55,013 bases of DNA from a virus (Duplodnaviria; Heunggongvirae; Uroviricota; Caudoviricetes): the IMG/VR virus record IMGVR_UViG_2880412407_000004; one strand, written 5' to 3'. Position numbers and translations under genes: made by a program. The first letter of the stretch is position 1, and each line of letters opens with the position of its first letter. The notes beneath the pieces are model-generated. The model made no database searches, was not told where the DNA came from, and saw nothing but the letters and a program-made list of their open reading frames with translations. Shown here piece by piece: positions 1-19,109 of this stretch.

Positions 1-1074
1 TCATTTGTCGATTTCAATTTTGTCCCATTCCCGTCCACGGCTGTCCCTATACCGCGCCGCCATTAAATCTGATTTATGCCCGAGAAGACGTTGAGCAAAC
101 TTATCGCCAATCTGGTTCCGGTATAGCCTCGCTGACAGGCTACGCAGTTCATGGAATGTTGGCGGGTTTCCATCAAATGAGAGTCCAGATGCATTTCTCG
201 CCTTTGTAAAATACTTTGATACTGTTTTCGGGGAAAGCGGATCGTGATGCTTTGATGCGATTATAGTTTCACTGCTGCTGGCCTCCCTGCATTTCTGTAG
301 TGTATCAGCCAATGAGATATTGAGCGCGTCAATCGTTAGCGTTAGCGGAATGGCGAGTTTAGCCCCTGTTTTACTCTGTTCAATGTGAAGATGGTTGTCG
401 TTTATGTCTGACCATTTCATTCTGCACAAATCGCCGACTCTCTGCCCTGTAACGACGGCCAAATCCATCGCCAGCCTTAGCCAGATAGGGAGAGGTTCGG
501 CTGCATGGTAAATCTCGACATACTCATTAGCTGTCAGCCTTGAGCGCCTTACTTCTGACTTTGCTGTACGGGTTGCTGTTACCGGATTCGTTGCAACATG
601 CCCCTCGGCTATTGCTTCACGAAAAACGTCAACAAGGGTTGACCTGATTAATTTTGCGGAAGCTGCTTTACCTTCTGCCACGTAGGTGTTTAGCATTGCT
701 GCCACTTCTTTCGTTGATATGTCAGTGAGCGGTTTGTCCGGCAATTTTCTTCGGATTGCCCTGATTTTGCTGGCGTAGTCGAGTAGAGTTTTCGGCCTGA
801 TCCCTCTTTCGGTGAGGATTCTTTCATATCGGTCAAGCCACACATGAAGAGTGATTGCGTCACCGCCTTTAATTCTGTCTATCAGTGATTTGCGTCCGCT
901 GTCTGAGAGTAACTCAATATTGGCCTGTATTGCTTCAGTGATTGCTATCCTCCTGTCTCGGCCTAATCCAAACTCTTTACCCGTCCTTGGGTCCCTGTAG
1001 CAGTAATATCCATTGTTTCTTATATAAAGGTTAGGGGGTAAATCCCGGCGCTCATGACTTCGCCTTCTTCCCAT
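1..1074 (-). CDS. int: Tyrosine integrase, lambda Int-like
   Basis: 357-aa ORF; near-identical to lambda Int over full length as recalled (MGRRRSHERRDLPPNLYIRNNGYYCY..., C-terminal HELRSLSARLY...DKIEIDK); 23-nt overlap with xis as in lambda. Confidence 0.95.
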   Translation of the reverse strand: MGRRRSHERRDLPPNLYIRNNGYYCYRDPRTGKEFGLGRDRRIAITEAIQANIELLSDSGRKSLIDRIKGGDAITLHVWLDRYERILTERGIRPKTLLDYASKIRAIRRKLPDKPLTDISTKEVAAMLNTYVAEGKAASAKLIRSTLVDVFREAIAEGHVATNPVTATRTAKSEVRRSRLTANEYVEIYHAAEPLPIWLRLAMDLAVVTGQRVGDLCRMKWSDINDNHLHIEQSKTGAKLAIPLTLTIDALNISLADTLQKCREASSSETIIASKHHDPLSPKTVSKYFTKARNASGLSFDGNPPTFHELRSLSARLYRNQIGDKFAQRLLGHKSDLMAARYRDSRGREWDKIEIDK

Positions 1075-1270
1075 TTCTGATCCTCTTCAAAAGGCTACCT
1101 GTTACTGGTCGATTTAAGTCAACCTTTACCGCTGATTCGTGGAACAGATACTCTCTGCCATCCTTAACCGGAGGAGGGAATATCCTGCATTCGCGCACCC
1201 ATCGACGAACTGTTTCAAGGCTTCTTGGGCGTCGCTGGCGAGCGTTCCACTCCTGAAGTGTCAAGTACAT
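1052..1270 (-). CDS. xis: Excisionase Xis
   Basis: 72-aa ORF MYLTLQEWNARQRRPRSLETVRRWVRECRIFPPPVKDGREYLF... matches lambda Xis; overlaps int start. Confidence 0.95.
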   Translation of the reverse strand: MYLTLQEWNARQRRPRSLETVRRWVRECRIFPPPVKDGREYLFHESAVKVDLNRPVTGSLLKRIRNGKKAKS

Positions 1271-1565
1271 CGCAAAGTCTCCGCAATTACACGCAAGAAA
1301 AAACCGCCATCAGGCGGCTTGGTGTTCTTTCAGTTCTTCAATTCGAATATTGGTTACGTCTGCATGTGCTATCTGCGCCCACAGCATCCAGTGGTCATAG
1401 CAGTCGCTGATGTTCTCGGCTTCGATAACTCTGTTGAATGGTTCTCCATTCCATTCACCTGTAACTCGGAAGTGCATTTATCATCGCCATAAAACAAAAC
1501 TCGCCGTAGCGAGTTCAGATAAAAGAAATCCCCGCGAGTGCGAGGATAGTTACTTGTTCATATTA

Positions 1566-1865
1566 TTAATCGTCAATGTATTTTGAGCATTGTGGGCAAT
1601 CATCGATCCCACAATACGATTCATATGCATCCTTTATTGCGTCGCGGGCTTCAGTAAGAGTATTGAATAAGTTGCAGCTATTATCTTTTTGATATAGGTA
1701 AGTTCCTAATTTATAAGCAGAAGAAGCATCATTTCCGCTGTCTAAAATTACATCGTTATGGATTCTGCACCTTGCAAGAACTCCTGATCCCATAAGGGTC
1801 TGCATAGCCCATTGCTCTTGATCTTCACACAAATCATGAATGCTCATTTCAACACCTCTCTTCAC
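1566..1865 (-). CDS. Hypothetical small protein, Ea8.5-like by position and motif
   Basis: 99-aa ORF in lambda b-region position; Cys-rich C-terminus (CGIDDCPQCSKYIDD); likely true start at MSIHDL. Confidence 0.4.
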   Translation of the reverse strand: MKRGVEMSIHDLCEDQEQWAMQTLMGSGVLARCRIHNDVILDSGNDASSAYKLGTYLYQKDNSCNLFNTLTEARDAIKDAYESYCGIDDCPQCSKYIDD

Positions 1866-1961
1866 GTTTCACACACGTTAAGATTAACAGTGTTTTTACA
1901 TGCTTTGGAAGATTTATTTTATAAAAACTCTTTTAATACAAATAGATATAATAGTTCACTA

Positions 1962-2759
1962 TTATAGCTCCTTTAATCGAGGCGGTTCTGGTAGAGGCAT
2001 CCAGTGGGTTACACCGCCAATTGGCTCATCGTCGTCGTACTCCAATGCGGTTATATAGAACCCGTCACGACGAGAATAAGAAATCCCGGACATTACAATG
2101 CCATCCGAAACAACAATAATGTCACCCGTTTCTTTCGGCATTCGCTCACTACAGCTTATCCAACCATCCGGAGTCACCGGAAGCGAGAACGGCAGCACAT
2201 CTCTGTGAACAAGTTTTTGCTGTGACAGGTTATCCAGAACTTTCTGTACTGCTGCATCACCGAATACACCAAGCGCATCTGCCATAACTCCTACAACCTG
2301 ATAAGCCTCAGCGCATACCGTGGATAAACCATCCGGAATTACCGGAGAGTTGCCGGGTTCTTTAATGTGCAAGCGAGGCTCACCATCTTTTGGTTCAGGC
2401 CACTGGCGCTCCATGTTGATCTTCAATTTATCTTCCATAGCAGCGGTAATTTCAGCATCGCTGATGCCAGCACGGCGCTGTGCATCCCACAACAGGAAAT
2501 GCATATCAGCCCACTCGCTGAGATCGTCTGGTTCGGCTGCGGCTTCCAGAGCCTCTTTTGAGAGGTGTTTCAGTGGACCAATGGGGCCAACGCAGCCAAA
2601 TGTGGAGTCAGACCATTTGGCATGCTCGTGGCGAATCAGTTCGCGTTCCAGTGATGCCAGTGCAATTCGTGCCAGTTCCATTTGTTCGCCACGAGTAAGC
2701 CCGTTTTCAAGCGGATTTTTAATGAACAATTCAATACGTTCTTTGGTAATAGTGGTCAT
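1962..2759 (-). CDS. Hypothetical protein; N-terminal MazG-like NTP pyrophosphohydrolase-like helices, C-terminal DUF551-like tail
   Basis: 265-aa ORF; segment EWADMHFLLWDAQRRAGISDAEITAAMEDKLKIN resembles MazG-type all-alpha NTP-PPase; C-terminal GGVTHWMPLPEPP resembles DUF551. Confidence 0.35.
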   Translation of the reverse strand: MTTITKERIELFIKNPLENGLTRGEQMELARIALASLERELIRHEHAKWSDSTFGCVGPIGPLKHLSKEALEAAAEPDDLSEWADMHFLLWDAQRRAGISDAEITAAMEDKLKINMERQWPEPKDGEPRLHIKEPGNSPVIPDGLSTVCAEAYQVVGVMADALGVFGDAAVQKVLDNLSQQKLVHRDVLPFSLPVTPDGWISCSERMPKETGDIIVVSDGIVMSGISYSRRDGFYITALEYDDDEPIGGVTHWMPLPEPPRLKEL

Positions 2760-2769
2760 TTGTTAGTCC

Positions 2770-3525
2770 TTAAACTGCTAGTTGCAATTGCATTTCAAAG
2801 CGGTCGCGTTGTTCACAATACGCAAGAGAACCAGGGCTATTGTGTGCCTCAATCCGTTCTACCATTAATGCTGCGCGTGTCTCTTTACTTGCAGGTGCAT
2901 AAGCCCCAGACCAGGCTTTATCAATACCGATGTTTCGAGCGACGTTCGTACTATCTGCGCTGGCTAAGGGTAATTTTGTGAATATCAGCGGATTTAACAT
3001 GCGCAATCCATGTAGTTTCGTAACCGGCTGACCATGCCCATCAACAATGTGACGAATCAGGTCTTTCATTCTGGCTACCGCAAGAGTTGGGCGCTTTACG
3101 TCATAGTCGCCACAACTACCGATAGCCACTCGCGGAAACTCATTGCACAAATGAATAAATCGCTCGTCACTTTCATTCATGTGCCACACTGGAACGCCAG
3201 CTAGTTTTCCGTGAGGCCACTCATTCAGAAGCGCATCATTTTCCTCCTCTCCGCCATCAATAACATCCGGGATAATGGCAAAATCTAATCCTGGGTGATT
3301 CTTCCAGCGAGCAACAAACTCGTAGTAATCGCTCCAGTCGATTTTGTTTTTGCCAGCTGCTTTCCAGGCGGTGAATGCACCGTTGTCCAGCGCGAACGAC
3401 TGACAGTATTCAGCCGCGAGATTGATCTGGCCTGAATGCGCAAAACTGATAAACGCATGTCGCCCTTTCCATGCTCTCATTGCGCACGTATCAGGAGTAA
3501 TAGGCCCACCGTGGTAGTGAATCAT
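2770..3525 (-). CDS. TGT-fold protein (tRNA-guanine transglycosylase / DpdA-like), tentative
   Basis: Likely start MIHYHGG at 3525; motif FALDNGAFTAW resembles the TGT-family DSGGF motif; further acidic motifs (IIPDVIDGGEEE, AIGSCGDYD). Confidence 0.3.
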   Translation of the reverse strand: MIHYHGGPITPDTCAMRAWKGRHAFISFAHSGQINLAAEYCQSFALDNGAFTAWKAAGKNKIDWSDYYEFVARWKNHPGLDFAIIPDVIDGGEEENDALLNEWPHGKLAGVPVWHMNESDERFIHLCNEFPRVAIGSCGDYDVKRPTLAVARMKDLIRHIVDGHGQPVTKLHGLRMLNPLIFTKLPLASADSTNVARNIGIDKAWSGAYAPASKETRAALMVERIEAHNSPGSLAYCEQRDRFEMQLQLAV

Positions 3526-5566: not shown

Positions 5567-6348
5567 GCAGCCACCTTCTGTTCAGAGGCTTTCTGTTTCA
5601 GGAATCCAAGAGCTTTCACTGCTTCGGCCTGTGTCAGTTCTGACGATGCGCGAATGTCGCGGCGAAATATCTGGGAACAGAGCGGCAATAAGTCGTCATC
5701 CCATGTTTTGTCCAGGGCAATCAGCAGAGTGTTAATCTCCTGCATGGTTTCATCGTTAACCGGAGTGATGTCGCGTTCCGGCTGACGTTCTGCAGTGTAT
5801 GCGGTATTTTCGACAATGCGCTCGGCTTCATCCTTGTCATAGATACCCGCAAATCCGAAGGCCAGACGGGCACACTGAATCATGGCTTTATGCCGTAACA
5901 TCCGTTTGGGATGCGACTGCCACGGCCCCGTAATTTCTCTGCCTTCGCGGGTTTTGAATGGTTCGCGACGGCATTCATCCATCCACTCGGTAACGCAGAT
6001 CGGATGATTACGGTCCTTGCGGTAAATCCGGCATGTACAGGATTCATTGTCCTGCTCAAAGTCCATGCCATCAAACTGCTGGTTTTCATTGATGATGCGG
6101 GACCAGCCATCAACGCCCACCACCGGAACGATGCCATTCTGCTTATCAGGAAAGGCGTAAATTTCTTTCGTCCACGGATTAAGGCCGTACTGGTTGGCAA
6201 CGATCAGTAATGCGATGAACTGCGCATCGCTGGCATCACCTTTAAATGCCGTCTGGCGAAGAGTGGTGATCAGTTCCTGTGGGTCGACAGAATCCATGCC
6301 GACACGTTCAGCCAGCTTCCCAGCCAGCGTTGCGAGTGCTGTACTCAT
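5563..6348 (-). CDS. bet: Recombination protein Bet (Red beta)
   Basis: 261-aa [51 protein letters not shown]... matches lambda Bet. Confidence 0.95.
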
Positions 6349-6353
6349 CCGTT

Positions 6354-6650
6354 TTATACCTCTGAATCAATATCAACCTGGTGGTGAGCAATGGTTTCAA
6401 CCATGTACCGGATGTGTTCTGCCATGCGCTCCTGAAACTCAACATCGTCATCAAACGCACGGGTAATGGCTTTTTTGCTGGCCCCGTGGCGTTGCAAATG
6501 ATCGATGCATAGCGATTCAAACAGGTGCTGGGGCAGGCCTTTTTCCATGTCGTCTGCCAGTTCTGCCTCTTTCTCTTCACGGGCGATCTGCTGGTAGTGA
6601 CGCGCCCAGCTCTGAGCCTCAAGACGATCCTGAATGTAATAAGCGTTCAT
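6354..6650 (-). CDS. gam: Gam, RecBCD inhibitor
   Basis: 98-aa [24 protein letters not shown]... matches the short form of lambda Gam. Confidence 0.95.
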
Positions 6651-6704
6651 GGCTGAACTCCTGAAAATGGCTGTGAAAATATCGCCCGCGAAATGCCAGG
6701 CTGA

Positions 6705-6869
6705 TTAGGAAAACAGGAAAGGGGGGTAGTGAATGCTTTTGCTTGATCTCAGTTTCTGTATTAATATCCATTTTTTATAAGCGTCGACGGCCTCACGAAA
6801 CATCTTTTCATCGCCAATAAAAGTGGCGATAGTGAATTTAGTCTGGATAGCAATAATTGTTTGATCCAT
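6705..6869 (-). CDS. kil: Kil (host-killing, FtsZ inhibitor)
   Basis: C-terminal part of 96-aa [41 protein letters not shown]... resembles lambda Kil; overlaps cIII as in lambda. Confidence 0.6.
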
Positions 6870-8023: not shown

Positions 8024-8521
8024 TTGATGAGTATAGAAATGGATCTACTCGTTATTCTCGGACGAGTGTTCAGTAATGAACCTCTGGAGAGAACCATGTA
8101 TATGATCGTTATCTGGGTTGGACTTCTGCTTTTAAGCCCAGATAACTGGCCTGAATATGTTAATGAGAGAATCGGTATTCCTCATGTGTGGCATGTTTTC
8201 GTCTTTGCTCTTGCATTTTCGCTAGCAATTAATGTGCATCGATTATCAGCTATTGCCAGCGCCAGATATAAGCGATTTAAGCTAAGAAAACGCATGAAGA
8301 TGCAAAACGATAAAGTGCGATCAGTAATTCAAAACCTTACAGAAGAGCAATCTATGGTTTTGTGCGCAGCCCTTAATGAAGGCAGGAAGTATGTGGTTAC
8401 ATCAAAACAATTCCCATACATTAGTGAGTTGATTGAGCTTGGTGTGTTGAACAAAACTTTTCCCGATGGAACGGGAAGCATATATTATTCCCTATTGAGG
8501 ATATTTACTGGACTGAATTAG
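8024..8521 (+). CDS. sieB: Superinfection exclusion protein SieB
   Basis: 165-aa hydrophobic ORF on + strand between ral and N, the lambda sieB position and orientation. Confidence 0.65.
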   Translation: MMSIEMDLLVILGRVFSNEPLERTMYMIVIWVGLLLLSPDNWPEYVNERIGIPHVWHVFVFALAFSLAINVHRLSAIASARYKRFKLRKRMKMQNDKVRSVIQNLTEEQSMVLCAALNEGRKYVVTSKQFPYISELIELGVLNKTFPDGTGSIYYSLLRIFTGLN

Positions 8522-9381: not shown

Positions 9382-10239
9382 TTATCGTTTATTTCTTTGA
9401 TGTTTCTTTGCAGACTCAGCTTGAGTGTTTCCATACCTGCGTTTACCGCTATTGTTTTTTCCTCTAGGCTTGCCTTTTTTTCGAGCTTCCCACCAGTCAG
9501 GTGCCGGGTCTGGCTCAACATGTAAAGCATCGGCAAGTCCTGATATCAAGCTGTATGACTGAACTCCATCAATGTGCTCTGACAGTGATGGGGTAACATT
9601 CTGTCTTAGTGGATCAAGAATAAAATCAATACCTTTAATTCTGGCGTGTTTGGCGGCAGGCACAAAGTCTGAGTCCCCAGCAACAAGGACAATTACATCA
9701 ACAAGTTTTTCATAAGCTAAAGTCGTGATATCCATCCCTAGCTTGATATCAACTTGTTTTTGTTTGATGTCATAGTAAAAATCATCATTTGTCAGTTCAT
9801 CCCATTTTTTCGTTCCTTTCATCAGAGCATCAAGGGAGAATGTAGTTAGTTGCCATCGCTTATTATCAACAAGATTCCCTAATCTTAAGGCTGTTTTTCG
9901 AGTTTTTCTTAACTCTTCATGCAGCTCCGTTCTCAGAATATATGATTTTTCGAGTTTGAAATTCTTGCGACCAGGCGTCTTATTGCCAGGCTCAGGAAGT
10001 GGAAGGCGTGTTTGAATGTCGAGTGGTGGACAGTCATAGAAGTAAATTCTATAAAGCTCAAGCGGTTCCCTACGTTCTTGTGATTGACGTTTTCCATTAA
10101 GATGGGAAAGAACCATTGACCATATTACTTTCATTATGCATTGCGCAGTCAGTTCATGCTCGGCGAAGTGTTTACGATGCGTAGCATGAACACGCTGCAT
10201 GAAAAAACCCGCATCAATTAAAATTGCTGCTTTCTTCAT
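9382..10239 (-). CDS. NYN-domain (LabA/PIN-like) protein with highly basic C-terminal tail, at the rexAB position
   Basis: 285-aa ORF; N-terminal AILIDAGFF, QKQVDIKLGMDI and VIVLVAGDSDFVPAAKHARIKGIDFIL fit NYN-domain conserved acidic motifs; C-terminus ARKKGKPRGKNNSGKRRYGNTQAESAKKHQRNKR; co-oriented with and immediately downstream of cI. Confidence 0.6.
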   Translation of the reverse strand: MKKAAILIDAGFFMQRVHATHRKHFAEHELTAQCIMKVIWSMVLSHLNGKRQSQERREPLELYRIYFYDCPPLDIQTRLPLPEPGNKTPGRKNFKLEKSYILRTELHEELRKTRKTALRLGNLVDNKRWQLTTFSLDALMKGTKKWDELTNDDFYYDIKQKQVDIKLGMDITTLAYEKLVDVIVLVAGDSDFVPAAKHARIKGIDFILDPLRQNVTPSLSEHIDGVQSYSLISGLADALHVEPDPAPDWWEARKKGKPRGKNNSGKRRYGNTQAESAKKHQRNKR

Positions 10240-15183: not shown

Positions 15184-15845
15184 ATATCTACGAAAGAATT
15201 GATGGCAGCAAATACCGAAATATTTGGGTAGCTGGCGATCTGCATGGATGCTACACGAACCTGATGAAAAAACTGGAGACGATAGGATTCGACACCAAAA
15301 AAGACCTGCTTATCTCGGTGGGCGATTTGGTTGATCGCGGTACAGAGAACGTAGAATGCCTGGAATTAATCACATTCCCCTGGTTCAGAGCTGTACGTGG
15401 AAACCATGAGCAAATGATGATTGATGGCTTATCAGAGCGTGGAAACGTCAATCACTGGCTGCTTAATGGCGGTGGCTGGTTCTTTAATCTCGATTACGAC
15501 AAAGAAATTCTGGCTAAAGCTCTTGCCCATAAAGCAGATGAACTTCCGTTAATCATCGAACTGGTGAGTAAAGGAAAAAAATATGTCATCTGCCACGCCG
15601 ATTATTCTTGTGATAAATACGAGTTTGGAAAGCCAGTTGATCATCAGCAGGTAATCTGGAACCGCGAACGAATCAGCAACTCACAAGACGGGATCGTGAA
15701 AGAAATCAAAGGCGCGGACACGTTCATCTTTGGTCATACGCAAGCAGTGAAACCACTCAAATTTGCCAACCAGATGTATATCGATACTGGCGCAGTGTTC
15801 TGCGGAAACCTCACATTGATTCAGGTACAGGGAGAAGGCGCATGA
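15180..15845 (+). CDS. ninI: Ser/Thr protein phosphatase (lambda PPase, NinI)
   Basis: 221-aa ORF with calcineurin-like metallophosphatase motifs GDLHG, GDLVDRG, GNHE; matches lambda phosphatase. Confidence 0.9.
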
Positions 15846-15974
15846 GACTCGAAAGCGTAGCTAAATTTCATTCGCCAAAAAGCCCGATGATGAGCGACTC
15901 ACTACTGGCCACAGTTTATTGGTTTTCGTAACTGAGTCATTTTATTATTTTATTGCAACTTTTAATCTTTTATA

Positions 15975-16020
15975 GTGCGAAATAAATGGAGCTAGCATTC
16001 ATTTCGCACTTTATGTTTTT
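15975..16020 (+). terminator. Putative terminator after the nin operon
   Basis: Inverted repeat GCGAAAT...ATTTCGC followed by a T-rich segment. Confidence 0.3.
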
Positions 16021-16056
16021 GTTGGACTTATGTTATTTTGATTGAATTCAATTCAG

Positions 16057-17016
16057 TTAAAAAAAGAAGGTGATTGCTCCATTTATAAATGAATAGTCAT
16101 CCCCTGTCTTGAATTCTGATGTTACTTTATTAAATGCTAGTGTGAAGGCTACAGGTGCATACCCAATTGTTGCGCCAACTTGATATTCATCAACAGTTTT
16201 GTTTAGCGATACTGTTGTTTGTTTCGTCTGTATTGTTTTTCCTTCGAGAGTATAGTTGCGATTGACATCTCGTCTTTCCATACCTGCAAAAATCTTGTAT
16301 TTGAATCCGCTTGTATCGGACATATGCATTAAACCACGGGGAGCCAGCAGACCAAAGCCATTATCCGAATTGAAGGTTTTATCATTACCAATGGCAATGG
16401 TTGCGCCATATGCTACATATTGAAATAAGTTTCCAGTAACAGCAGAAACTTCAGGGTATAATCCAACATTAGCACCTAAAATATCCATACTTGGTGTCAT
16501 GGATAGCATCCCTTTTACAGTATAACCGTAGCGATTCTCTATTTGATCATCCCATGCATGATATTTTTCTGCCCCAATAATCTCATGAGCTTTATTTTGT
16601 ACTTTCTGACCGCCTGCGTCGGGGCCAACAACACCTATGTCAGTACCTAATCGATAGCGAATCCAGTCATTCGCAAGGGAGTTCCATTCAATACCTGTGT
16701 GAGTGTATGCGCTAAAAGCTCTGTCTCCAGTTACAGCTGTGTTGTGTCTTTTATTACTGCCTGATGGAGAGTAAATATCTTGCGCAATATGGAGAGATAA
16801 TTGGCTCGAGTCTGAGATATCGTGGCTATATCCCAGAAATAAGCCTTGTGAGTAATCATCTCTGTTTTCATGTTTATTGCCATAAATATCATTAAGTATT
16901 GGTTGAAACTTCCCTGCATCATCATTTGCTAATGATAATGCAAGGCTGTTCGCGATAGCTGAACACGTGGTAAATGACAGAGCAATAAAGACGCCAGCGA
17001 TGACACTTTTTTTCAT
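16057..17016 (-). CDS. Predicted outer-membrane beta-barrel protein (signal peptide, C-terminal aromatic residue); AT-rich cargo gene
   Basis: 319-aa ORF with N-terminal signal-like MKKSVIAGVFIALSFTTCSAIANSLA, alternating Gly/Tyr-rich amphipathic segments, terminal FFF; opposite orientation to flanking phage genes. Confidence 0.55.
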   Translation of the reverse strand: MKKSVIAGVFIALSFTTCSAIANSLALSLANDDAGKFQPILNDIYGNKHENRDDYSQGLFLGYSHDISDSSQLSLHIAQDIYSPSGSNKRHNTAVTGDRAFSAYTHTGIEWNSLANDWIRYRLGTDIGVVGPDAGGQKVQNKAHEIIGAEKYHAWDDQIENRYGYTVKGMLSMTPSMDILGANVGLYPEVSAVTGNLFQYVAYGATIAIGNDKTFNSDNGFGLLAPRGLMHMSDTSGFKYKIFAGMERRDVNRNYTLEGKTIQTKQTTVSLNKTVDEYQVGATIGYAPVAFTLAFNKVTSEFKTGDDYSFINGAITFFF

Positions 17017-17408
17017 ATGTTATTGTCTTCCTTTTTTTTGAATGGTGCGCGTATTTTACATACATGAGTTTGTAATACAAGGTGCGTAATCAATATGATG
17101 TTTTATAATTGCGTGAGACAATTGATTTATTCGTTTTTTATTGTTGTTTTTATTATCTTTTAATGTAACGGTGTTTTTATTAGGTGTGTTTGTGTGGTGT
17201 TTTATGTTTTTATAATTTTTATTTTATTAAATTTAAATGCATTAGTAATGGCTATTCTATATAGCAATATAAGAACTGTTACAAAAAAAGGGGGGGGGCA
17301 ATTACAGGTAGTTATGGATGATGAGTGAAACAGATATTGGAGAACCGGGGAATGAATGATGTCTGAGTCTTATATATCAGAACTCCTTCGCTGTCGCTGG
17401 GGGCTCCT

Positions 17409-18182
17409 GTGCTTATGTCGTTTCCCCGATTCGGTTTTGAACGATTACCGAATGTTGAAGAATTATGCCAAAATATAGAAAGGATTTACTGCATGAATAC
17501 CCAATATTTACAGTATGTTCGTGAGCAACTTATGGCAGCTACTGCTGACTTGAACGGAGCAACGAAAGGCCAGCTCGAAGCCTGGCAGGAGCATGCACAA
17601 TTTGATACTGGTACATACAAACGAAAGAAGCCGCGCATTCTGGATGTGGTAACTGGCAAGATGATTACGCTGGATAATACGCCGACTTCCGGTAAGCAGT
17701 CGTACGCAAAAGGTTCATCCATTGCTTTGGTCAGCCCGGTTGAATTCTCAACCTCTTCATGGCGCCGCGCGGTTTTGTCTCTCGATGAACATCAGAAAGC
17801 ATGGTTGCTTTGGTGTTACAGCGAAAGCGTTCGATGGGGGCATCAGGTCACCATAACGCAATGGGCATGGAGCGAGTTTAAAGATTTGTTAAGTAACAGA
17901 AAAATTGCAGGTAAGACACTGGATCGCCTGAAGACGTTAATCTGGCTGGCTGCACAGGATGTGAAGAGCGAACTTGCAGGGCGTGAGGCCTATGAATACC
18001 AGACACTGGCATCATTGGTGGGAGTGACAACAAAAAACTGGTCCGAGACATTTACTGAACGCTGGGTTGCAATGAAGCACATTTTTCTACAGCTTGATAG
18101 TGATGCTTTATTGCTTGTGACGAAAACACGTTCAAAACAAAAGGCAGCATTTTTACAGCAAAATATTGCAAAACTGGATTAA
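17409..18182 (+). CDS. Putative late-gene antiterminator (Q-like) assigned by position; family uncertain
   Basis: 257-aa ORF (possible true start MNTQYLQY at 17493) between the nin region and a hairpin plus T-run; occupies the lambda Q position but is unlike lambda Q. Confidence 0.35.
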   Translation: MLMSFPRFGFERLPNVEELCQNIERIYCMNTQYLQYVREQLMAATADLNGATKGQLEAWQEHAQFDTGTYKRKKPRILDVVTGKMITLDNTPTSGKQSYAKGSSIALVSPVEFSTSSWRRAVLSLDEHQKAWLLWCYSESVRWGHQVTITQWAWSEFKDLLSNRKIAGKTLDRLKTLIWLAAQDVKSELAGREAYEYQTLASLVGVTTKNWSETFTERWVAMKHIFLQLDSDALLLVTKTRSKQKAAFLQQNIAKLD

Positions 18183-18227
18183 AAGTCATATACTTCATGC
18201 AAATTTGGTATGTTGTAAAAAATGTAT

Positions 18228-18257
18228 AAACCCGCTGCCGAGTGGGTTTTTTTATGC
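18228..18257 (+). terminator. Candidate tR-prime-like terminator or qut-region hairpin downstream of the Q-like gene
   Basis: AAACCC-(10 nt)-GGGTTT stem followed by a run of T. Confidence 0.4.
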
Positions 18258-18350
18258 CCTGAGTTGTACTTGTACGGTAAACATGCTGGCTGCTATGTAA
18301 TAGAGTTTTTTTAGCCTGTAACCTCTTGACGGCATTGAATTGCTTTTGTT

Positions 18351-19109
18351 ATGAGTTGTAAGCCAATGTTATCATCTTGTATTGGGGGGGTTATGAAGGA
18401 TGGTGCGCTGCTCAGGAGTTCTTCACTTTTTATTGCCTACATGGGATGCCTTGGATGGGGGAGTGCTTATTTCTATGGATGGGGTACTTCTTTTTACTAC
18501 GGCTTCCCATGGTGGATTGTAGGTGCAGGTGTTGATGATGTTGCCAGAAGTTTATTTTTTGCAGTTATCGTCATTGCTATATTTCTTATCGGTTGGGGTA
18601 TTGGTGTTGTATTCTTTTTCGCAGTGAAAAGAAAACATTCTATGCAAGAGCTAAATGTATTTCGCCTTTATTTTGCTGTGGAATTATTGTTTGTGCCGGC
18701 AATTATTGAGTTTTCTATATTGAGACAGAAGATTCAGGTACCTCTTTTGCTACTGTCAGCAGCGATTGCGCTGGCGGTTACAATTTCGATAAGATCTTAT
18801 GGGCGATTTTTATCGGTATCATGCTTCTATGATAAGCCATTTATAAAAAAACATTTTTTTGAGATTGTGATGATTGCTTTTGTGGCATATTTCTGGCTTT
18901 TTTCATTTCTGACAGGATATTACAAACCACAGTTTAAGAAAGAATATGAAATGATTAATTATAATGATGGTTGGTATTATGTTCTTGCTCGTTATGATAA
19001 TTGTCTGGTTTTGTCTACTTCTTTCAATGCAGGTAGTAAAAGGTTTGTCATTTATCAATCAGCACAAGATAAGAATCTTCAGGTTGATATTGTAAGGACC
19101 AGAATTTAA
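18351..19109 (+). CDS. Multi-pass inner-membrane protein of unknown function; AT-rich cargo at the stx-equivalent position
   Basis: 252-aa ORF with several hydrophobic helices (WWIVGAGV..., FFAVIVIAIFLIGWGIGVVFFFAV, VPLLLLSAAIALAVTISI, IVMIAFVAYFWLFSFL) and a C-terminal soluble region; low GC relative to phage backbone. Confidence 0.55.
   Translation: MSCKPMLSSCIGGVMKDGALLRSSSLFIAYMGCLGWGSAYFYGWGTSFYYGFPWWIVGAGVDDVARSLFFAVIVIAIFLIGWGIGVVFFFAVKRKHSMQELNVFRLYFAVELLFVPAIIEFSILRQKIQVPLLLLSAAIALAVTISIRSYGRFLSVSCFYDKPFIKKHFFEIVMIAFVAYFWLFSFLTGYYKPQFKKEYEMINYNDGWYYVLARYDNCLVLSTSFNAGSKRFVIYQSAQDKNLQVDIVRTRI

Follow-up and report, generated by a model that had tools for sequence, protein, structure and literature searches.

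A described relative of the membrane protein considered here is STM1630 (SL1344_1560) of Salmonella Typhimurium. The gene in question lies in the IMG/VR virus record IMGVR_UViG_2880412407_000004, a stretch of 55,013 nucleotides whose whole length is referred to here as the window, and it corresponds to an intact open reading frame (ORF) of 252 amino acids (aa) at 18351..19109 (+), beyond the antiterminator gene Q of a lambdoid prophage of Escherichia coli. STM1630 is encoded between steB and sseJ, is absent from S. Typhi and has been described as a function-unknown protein; attenuation in calves and chicks was reported for signature-tagged mutants, H-NS binds the gene, expression occurs both in medium inducing Salmonella pathogenicity island 2 (SPI-2) and in macrophages, the invasive ST313 lineage has a broken -10 element for the gene, and deletion of the gene in strain 4/74 increased intramacrophage fold-replication (PMC6785131 S1 Text; 10.1101/450098). 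STM1630 has its own mapped promoter, and transposon libraries lack insertions in the gene because of H-NS binding (PMC6785131 S1 Text); furthermore, it falls in a gene set that is co-regulated with SPI-2 (PMC2639726).

The window protein has the same length, predicted helices and beta domain as STM1630, at 46% identity. The window gene has an AT-rich composition, H-NS binding is reported for STM1630, and both genes adjoin virulence genes; however, STM1630 has a stable place in the chromosome, next to sseJ, and a promoter of its own, whereas the window gene is located in the late region of a prophage, after Q. Membership of the STM1630 family gives no mechanism.

Phage 434 has the same gene order as the window (lpxR, ylcG, Q, the membrane gene, a DUF3927 gene and nanS-p); however, 434 is a functional prophage in which nanS-p is intact, whereas in the window nanS-p has an internal stop and is followed by an IS66 element. 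The morons of lambdoid phages, such as stxAB in Shiga toxin (Stx) phages and bor and lom in lambda, are likewise inserted cargo of deviant composition that is dispensable for growth, and a promoter-like site of its own and flanking terminators may be a further likeness, but the window gene differs from these in encoding an inner-membrane protein, neither a toxin nor an outer-membrane or lipoprotein factor. Lambda RexB, P22 SieA and T4 Imm are inner-membrane superinfection-exclusion proteins, and the window protein is generally like them in being a prophage-borne, multi-pass inner-membrane protein from a single gene; it is unlike them in that no sequence or fold similarity was found, and in that the window prophage already has a sieB gene (8096-8521).

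The membrane gene between Q and nanS-p

The membrane ORF is a genuine, conserved protein-coding gene. Across nine homologues, with synonymous divergence ranging from 0.2 to >2, the ratio of nonsynonymous to synonymous substitution rates (dN/dS) was 0.05-0.18, and the gene is therefore under purifying selection. All loci compared have an unbroken reading frame for it, although in the prophage nanS-p next to it and many structural genes are broken. The original prediction had described a 252-aa gene at 18351-19109; the intact ORF is present, but the true start is most likely the ATG at 18393, 42 nt downstream, which would yield 238 aa. The coding sequence was placed at 18393-19109 because homologues are 237-238 aa long and their alignments begin at the Met encoded at 18393, because the 14-codon extension back to 18351 is without conservation and is out of frame in a 94%-identical Escherichia sp. 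copy, because the ATG at 18351 falls within the -10 hexamer of a promoter-like element that is kept across contexts, and because a run of seven G residues (18384-18390) lies just before the ATG at 18393. The RefSeq start is 18366.

The features of the interval and its left flank are as follows.

15842-15913: Q-gene remnant, annotated without a C-terminus
16057..17016 (-): lpxR, lipid A 3'-O-deacylase family, AT-rich cargo (Pfam PF09982, E 7e-40)
17493..18182 (+): antiterminator gene Q, phage 82-like and not of the lambda type (Pfam PF06323, E 8.7e-92)
18166..18194 (+): candidate for the late promoter PR', TTGCAA-17-TATACT, which overlaps Q at its end (consensus scan 9/12)
18228..18256 (+): tR'-like intrinsic terminator, made up of a 9-bp-stem hairpin (18228-18249) and a T-run after it
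18326..18355 (+): candidate own promoter of the membrane gene, TTGACG (18326-18331), an 18-nt spacer, TGt and TATGAG (18350-18355), extended -10
18393..19109 (+): STM1630-family (PF27470) inner-membrane protein, 238 aa
19195..19353 (+): DUF3927 small membrane protein gene, 52 aa (Pfam PF13064, E 3e-14; PHROG 1470)
19364..19568 (+): STnc100/PasD-like prophage small RNA (sRNA) candidate (Rfam RF02076, 44.1 bits against a gathering score of 47, E 1.3e-7)
19539-19557 and a run of seven T (to 19563) (+): strong terminator closing the cassette, at the end of the sRNA candidate (z -4.5)
19651..21501 (+): nanS-p-type sialate O-acetylesterase (DUF1737/SASA), a pseudogene with an internal stop, forming the right border of the cargo interval

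The membrane gene is the first gene after Q, the promoter-like site and the intrinsic terminator. The Q ORF is open from 17409, RefSeq starts it at 17493, and the phage 434 record names a Q82-like protein. Identified by position and consensus, the site at 18166-18194 is a candidate for PR', with a predicted transcription start at ~18201. The tR'-like hairpin folds at -15.9 kcal/mol (z -2.6), a terminator is annotated at the same place in phage 434, and the structure is presumed to be the target of Q antitermination; site and hairpin together have the layout expected of a late promoter with a Q-antiterminated terminator. Short PR'-tR' transcripts are sRNAs in Stx phages, and an RNA of ~55 nt (18201-18256, +) would run here from the predicted PR' start to the tR' hairpin, if PR' is active in lysogens. 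The very high expression on induction that the original prediction had assumed may be predicted from this consensus-level PR'-like promoter and terminator only, in a prophage that is decayed. The candidate promoter closer to the gene shares its element, TTGACG-18-TGtTATGAG, with copies in E. albertii, in Escherichia sp. and on a heat-labile enterotoxin (LT) plasmid of enterotoxigenic E. coli (ETEC), while the further flanks of these loci are unrelated.

The G+C content of the membrane gene is 36.3%, compared to a window mean of 50.1%, which places it in the lowest 3.9% of equal-sized segments, and G+C at third codon positions is 31%. The AT-rich block is wider than the gene, extending over ~15.4-19.7 kb and taking in lpxR, ylcG and part of Q. 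Within 15842-17478 the order is the Q remnant, lpxR on the minus strand, and then ylcG ahead of the phage 82-type Q. This looks like a module swap that brought lpxR, Q and the membrane-gene cassette in jointly as one AT-rich block.

Judged by gene order, the membrane gene occupies the Q-to-nanS-p interval in which Stx phages hold stx. Stx1a phages have stx1A and stx1B after Q and ahead of yjhS, with the holin gene next, and the window nanS-p is 96% identical to the yjhS that follows stx1AB, with homology from its first bases. Between Q and nanS-p of the window no stx A or B genes were found, but only the membrane gene, the DUF3927 gene and the sRNA-like element. The observation that prompted this analysis is thus confirmed: a Q-like gene ending at 18182 and a hairpin with a T-run stand upstream, a nanS-p-like gene stands downstream, and the cargo between them is AT-rich compared to the window as a whole, bounded by terminators, and situated where stxAB would be. 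The original prediction missed that the gene was already catalogued, that its start probably lies 42 nt further downstream, and that the cassette includes the DUF3927 gene and the STnc100-like sRNA.

The DUF3927 gene accompanies near-identical alleles of the membrane gene, not the whole family. Its label 'TciB' was given by similarity only, and a lead to colicin tolerance through 'tciA/tciB' was rejected, as it traced only to a similarity-based, P1-type annotation of this neighbour. A 2026 preprint reports a relationship between STnc100 and the PasD sRNA and a frequent occurrence of STnc100 close to the Pas sRNA genes of prophages, a part of which are esterase-associated (10.64898/2026.05.13.724894). 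The STnc100-like stretch overlaps the third ORF annotated as a 'putative membrane protein' in phage 434 (OL657226; locus L001, 5229-5417), and because of this overlap that ORF may be an sRNA rather than a protein gene.

Architecture and family of the protein

The original prediction of several transmembrane helices and a C-terminal domain was supported by hydropathy and charge distribution, which gave five membrane segments, and by an AlphaFold model. The model, built with 49 sequences, had a predicted local distance difference test score (pLDDT) of 79 and a predicted template modelling score (pTM) of 0.72, with helices at residues 10-36, 47-79, 84-111, 116-137 and 155-181 followed by five strands within residues 184-235. 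The N-terminus would be cytoplasmic, and the predicted beta domain of ~55 aa at the C-terminus would face the periplasm, because the positive loops (KRKH and R..R...K...KKH) would then face the cytoplasm. Conserved across the 49 sequences are the small residues 11, 15, 25, 31, 33 and 37 and the aromatic residues 22, 26, 28, 185 and 195, as well as Pro39 and Gly175; no charged, polar or catalytic residue is conserved family-wide in this set, and the protein is therefore probably not an enzyme. Enteric members share an invariant G21-W-G-S-A25-Y-F-Y-G29-W-G-x-S33-x-Y-Y-G37 as well as D48, A51, R52 and S53. We infer that this pattern fits tight packing or oligomerisation of helices together with a binding surface that faces the periplasm. 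A search of PDB chains with the family profile returned nothing below E = 5, and no structural relatives were found in PDB or BFVD.

Searches of Pfam and NCBIfam (in copies without the PF27470 model) gave no match for the protein, and neither did PADLOC, with 0 matches to its defence models at E <= 0.1. PHROG 1521, of the 'unknown function' category, matched at E 2e-154. In a large protein database 103 relatives were found, all of which carry a precomputed Pfam assignment to PF27470 ('TfpB'); the PF27470 membership is that of these precomputed labels. One relative, P0075, is 46% identical to the window protein over the full 238 aa (E 1.3e-70). P0075 is itself 238 aa long, and it was identified as Salmonella STM1630 because its gene lies next to sseJ, which encodes a Sif/GDSL-lipase, and because the deletion primer published for STM1630 matches it. 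RefSeq uses the name 'STM1630 family protein' for some identical E. coli copies. The architecture common to members, found in the window protein too, is a conserved N-terminal pair of helices rich in Gly and aromatic residues, then additional helices and, at the C-terminus, a beta domain, in ~238 aa. With near certainty, the gene product is an STM1630-family accessory membrane protein.

The family is small, as a profile search of 1.84 billion cluster representatives returned only 72 proteins. These come from Enterobacteriaceae, from Pasteurellaceae (Avibacterium, Gallibacterium, Pasteurella, Actinobacillus, Mannheimia and H. ducreyi, at 23-34% identity) and from a few Neisseria species, and a locus search with a closer alignment gave 6 species-representative loci only. 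A search of 5426 complete E. coli genomes gave 679 records with a copy at least 99% identical, and carriers include O157:H7, O121, O145, O103 and O111 strains. Among 50,697 phage records the only carriers were 434 and 2B8 (three records). Phage 434 encodes the same protein, at 100% identity, as CPT_434_68, annotated as a 'putative membrane protein' (OL657226), and from the end of Q to nanS-p the two DNAs are 99.5% identical. A 3-kb contig assigned to a metagenome-assembled genome of Veillonella sp. (JAIITD010000172.1) encodes a membrane protein, a DUF3927 protein and a nanS-p N-terminus that are all 100% identical to those of the window; this contig is almost certainly mis-binned Escherichia DNA.

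Besides the phage 434 arrangement, the Shiga-toxin-producing E. coli (STEC) strain 88-3493 has a divergent allele (~57% aa identity) directly after a different Q, with a methyltransferase gene and tRNA genes next. In O157:H7 86-24, ~870 bp separate the membrane gene from the holin gene downstream, and the DUF3927 gene is located in this gap. Most homologues are found outside phages, far from lysis genes. On ETEC plasmids (loci L004-L007, 3987-6714), a homologue lies ~870 bp from the heat-labile enterotoxin genes eltAB, in divergent orientation. The ETEC plasmid copy and the window copy both have the TTGACG-18-TGtTATG promoter-like element, and the family thus adjoins an AB5 toxin operon on these plasmids and, in the window, takes the place of stx. 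The virulence plasmid pWR501 of Shigella carries a homologue amid hypothetical genes and insertion sequence (IS) elements (106 Shigella plasmid records). A canine E. coli isolate has a homologue adjoining the pap operon and a MarR-family gene, in UTI89 the homologue adjoins iroBC and is a pseudogene, and a Salmonella IncFII plasmid carries one without a conserved neighbour.

In the Salmonella chromosome, STM1630 adjoins sseJ and is syntenic across S. enterica subspecies enterica, diarizonae and arizonae. The C. rodentium site is the chromosomal place of sseJ-STM1630 in Salmonella, with the same downstream flank (frmA-like, methyl-accepting chemotaxis protein and LysR genes), but lpxR lies upstream; this lpxR is split, with 70-75% identity in its two parts, and the family member (6001-6717) is 178 bp away, without an intervening Q (locus L003, 4863-6717). 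Adjacency to lpxR was seen in the 434-type module and in C. rodentium only, so lpxR is not a family-wide partner, and its repeated occurrence might be functional or might be a relic. In Neisseria, Avibacterium and H. ducreyi, a lone homologue stands between housekeeping genes. Because neighbours vary by locus, the family is without a conserved partner gene; relatives stand singly on virulence plasmids, in pathogenicity islands and in the chromosomes of Proteobacteria that are host-associated.

Possible roles of the protein

The explanation that we favour, tentatively and at somewhat under an even chance, is that the gene is a moron encoding an STM1630-family inner-membrane protein which serves the lysogen as an envelope or host-interaction factor. 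Its moron traits are the low G+C content, the terminators on both sides and the promoter-like element that is conserved in unrelated contexts. In phage 434B the whole segment is replaced by DLP12 DNA and the phage still plates; because 434B is viable without the segment, the membrane gene is dispensable for phage growth. With respect to function, an envelope or host-interaction role is the most likely one because of the STM1630 data and the virulence-locus company of the family, and this part of the explanation, which is drawn by analogy, is more tentative again. Homologues adjoin eltAB, pap and iro, one is located on pWR501, and the same prophage has lpxR, lom and four nleG genes. The original prediction had put forward exclusion, abortive infection or host interaction, and host interaction alone gains support from outside, namely from the STM1630 data and the virulence-locus neighbourhoods; as a whole, that interpretation is partly supported.

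According to this explanation, the protein would have its N-terminus in the cytoplasm, cross the membrane five times and present a small beta domain to the periplasm. It would act non-enzymatically, packing or oligomerising through the invariant ladder of small and aromatic residues in helix 1 and using the beta domain and helix 2, at its periplasmic end (D-x-x-A-R-S), for binding. Expression would come from its own H-NS-silenced sigma-70 promoter, with Q-dependent read-through adding a burst on induction, and the main action would take place in the lysogen, where the protein would be an envelope or host-interaction factor, as the Salmonella homologue appears to be.

It should be noted that several points weigh against this explanation. 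The functional lean is by analogy with a 46%-identical homologue whose phenotypes are modest, and the hypermotility of an STM1630 mutant in a published screen was not among the motility phenotypes verified in a follow-up study. Both promoters are consensus-level predictions, the H-NS silencing is carried over from STM1630, and topology and oligomerisation are predictions. Placement at virulence loci would be equally expected of a hitch-hiking mobile gene or of a defence gene. Moreover, pseudogenised copies exist, as in UTI89, and fragment PHROGs covering parts of the protein suggest that some phages have split copies.

A defence role is an alternative: one inner-membrane protein, which might form or block a channel, would shield the lysogen from other phages or from toxins that target membranes, through superinfection exclusion, abortive infection or bacteriocin immunity. 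A lone, partnerless membrane-protein gene in prophages, plasmids and islands has a distribution typical of defence or orphan immunity genes, and the small-residue ladder of helix 1 has a spacing of four; small residues spaced four apart are seen in channel-forming membrane proteins. The neighbouring DUF3927 gene is labelled 'TciB-like ... resistance to colicin', by similarity only. Against these points, PADLOC gave no match, searches of PDB and BFVD gave no structural relative, just three of the 50,697 phage records, from two phages, carry the gene, and the copies beside sseJ in Salmonella have long been syntenic and have infection-linked expression and phenotypes, which a host-directed role fits better. 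We consider defence unlikely. Another reading, somewhat less likely still, takes STM1630/PF27470 as a single-gene mobile inner-membrane module in which the ladder helices would form an oligomeric channel or scaffold, the beta domain would be a sensor, and the result would be a selectable envelope phenotype. If this were true, the phenotype would be protection from phage or bacteriocin entry or survival in the host, and the repeated capture of the gene near toxins and effectors (the stx position, eltAB, sseJ and the Shigella virulence plasmid) would therefore be explained.

As the first gene of a presumed late transcript that encodes a multi-pass membrane protein, and with a copy ~870 bp upstream of the holin gene in O157:H7 86-24, the gene could also be read as a late-function accessory, such as a holin, antiholin, lysis-timing or virion-release factor, which would account for its site shortly ahead of the lysis cassette. 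This reading is already largely refuted and is very improbable. Homology to a known holin or lysis protein, which the original prediction had named as an outcome that would overturn it, was absent, as no holin, antiholin, spanin or lysis match was found in Pfam, NCBIfam or PHROG; the prophage has separate genes for a class II holin, a lysozyme and a lysis protein, 434B still forms plaques without the segment, and most homologues reside at a distance from lysis genes, outside phages. Usual holins are short proteins, unlike this one of 238 aa, in which a beta domain follows five transmembrane helices. An accessory role in type IV pili, akin to that of FimB/TfpY and to which we assign scarcely any probability, is suggested by the precomputed Pfam label 'TfpB' and by the distant homologues in Neisseria and Pasteurellaceae; TfpY-like proteins, with ~235-245 aa, N-terminal transmembrane helices and a periplasmic C-terminal domain (PMC11841053), were also counted in its favour. 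The pilus reading was rejected on architecture and context: five helices and an all-beta domain stand against the three helices and mixed alpha/beta domain of TfpY, whose gene is found next to pilin genes (PMC11841053), no pilin gene adjoins the gene in any locus examined, and the 72 proteins returned from 1.84 billion representatives are not the widespread TfpY family. The origin of the label was not found in the literature, where TfpB or similar names occur only in type IV pilus usages (the Tfpb pilus class, the A. baylyi TfpB motor and TfpY/FimB) or as chemistry and anaesthesia acronyms, and none of the cluster members is named 'TfpB'; because its origin was not traced, the label was treated as uninformative. 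Lastly, the gene might be a non-functional passenger ORF kept by linkage in a decaying prophage, given that the prophage is decayed and that some copies elsewhere are pseudogenes. The dN/dS of 0.05-0.18, the frame that is intact at all loci compared, in contrast to the broken nanS-p and many broken structural genes, and the ~680 complete genomes with a copy at least 99% identical refute this at the level of sequence evolution, and it is extremely unlikely.

The carrier prophage and significance of the gene

The window is a decayed, lambda-like (lambdoid) prophage of E. coli O121:H19, and its bases 1-50 kb are 100% identical to E. coli O121 RM8352, with 0 mismatches. Further features of the prophage are as follows.

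8096-8521: sieB-family exclusion gene, beside the N gene
9382-10239: NYN-domain gene and a truncated ORF, between N and the repressor gene
21849-24443: IS66-family element (tnpA, tnpB, tnpC), between nanS-p and the holin gene
24666-25803: holin-lysozyme-lysis cassette (class II holin, lysozyme and lysis-protein genes)
50179-50754: NleG-family gene
51039-51626: NleG-family gene
51694-52329: NleG-family gene
53590-54240 (-): NleG-family gene
54423 to the end of the window: IpaB/EvcA-family gene

The nanS-p gene is broken by its internal stop, and RefSeq, in the identical record, gives frameshifts for the genes of the terminase large subunit and the protease, for several head-tail and tail genes, for the tape-measure gene and for J. 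The decayed stretches are 19651-24500 and 27857-48528; the annotated frameshifts could alternatively be assembly errors. Intact cargo genes are lpxR, the membrane gene, the DUF3927 gene, lom, the four nleG genes and, at the right end, one IpaB/EvcA-family effector gene, and the right end of the window (50179-55013) is an AT-rich effector locus. The sieB-family gene and the NYN-domain gene region are both located in AT-rich islands and are possible defence cargo.

Public databases already contained the gene and its family, and recorded the gene for phage 434. The additions made here are the corrected start, the link to the STM1630 literature, the recurrent placement at toxin and effector loci, the conserved promoter-like element and the tractability of phage 434. 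A membrane-protein moron after Q will be no surprise to a specialist, and solving the role of the membrane gene would mainly fill an annotation gap and overturn nothing. A near-identical gene is present in about one-eighth of complete E. coli genomes, mostly in Shiga-toxin-producing lineages, and because phage 434 encodes the same protein, simple lysogen genetics could probe its function. If an envelope or exclusion role is true, the membrane gene would be one more lysogenic-conversion function in the Q-to-lysis 'cargo bay'.

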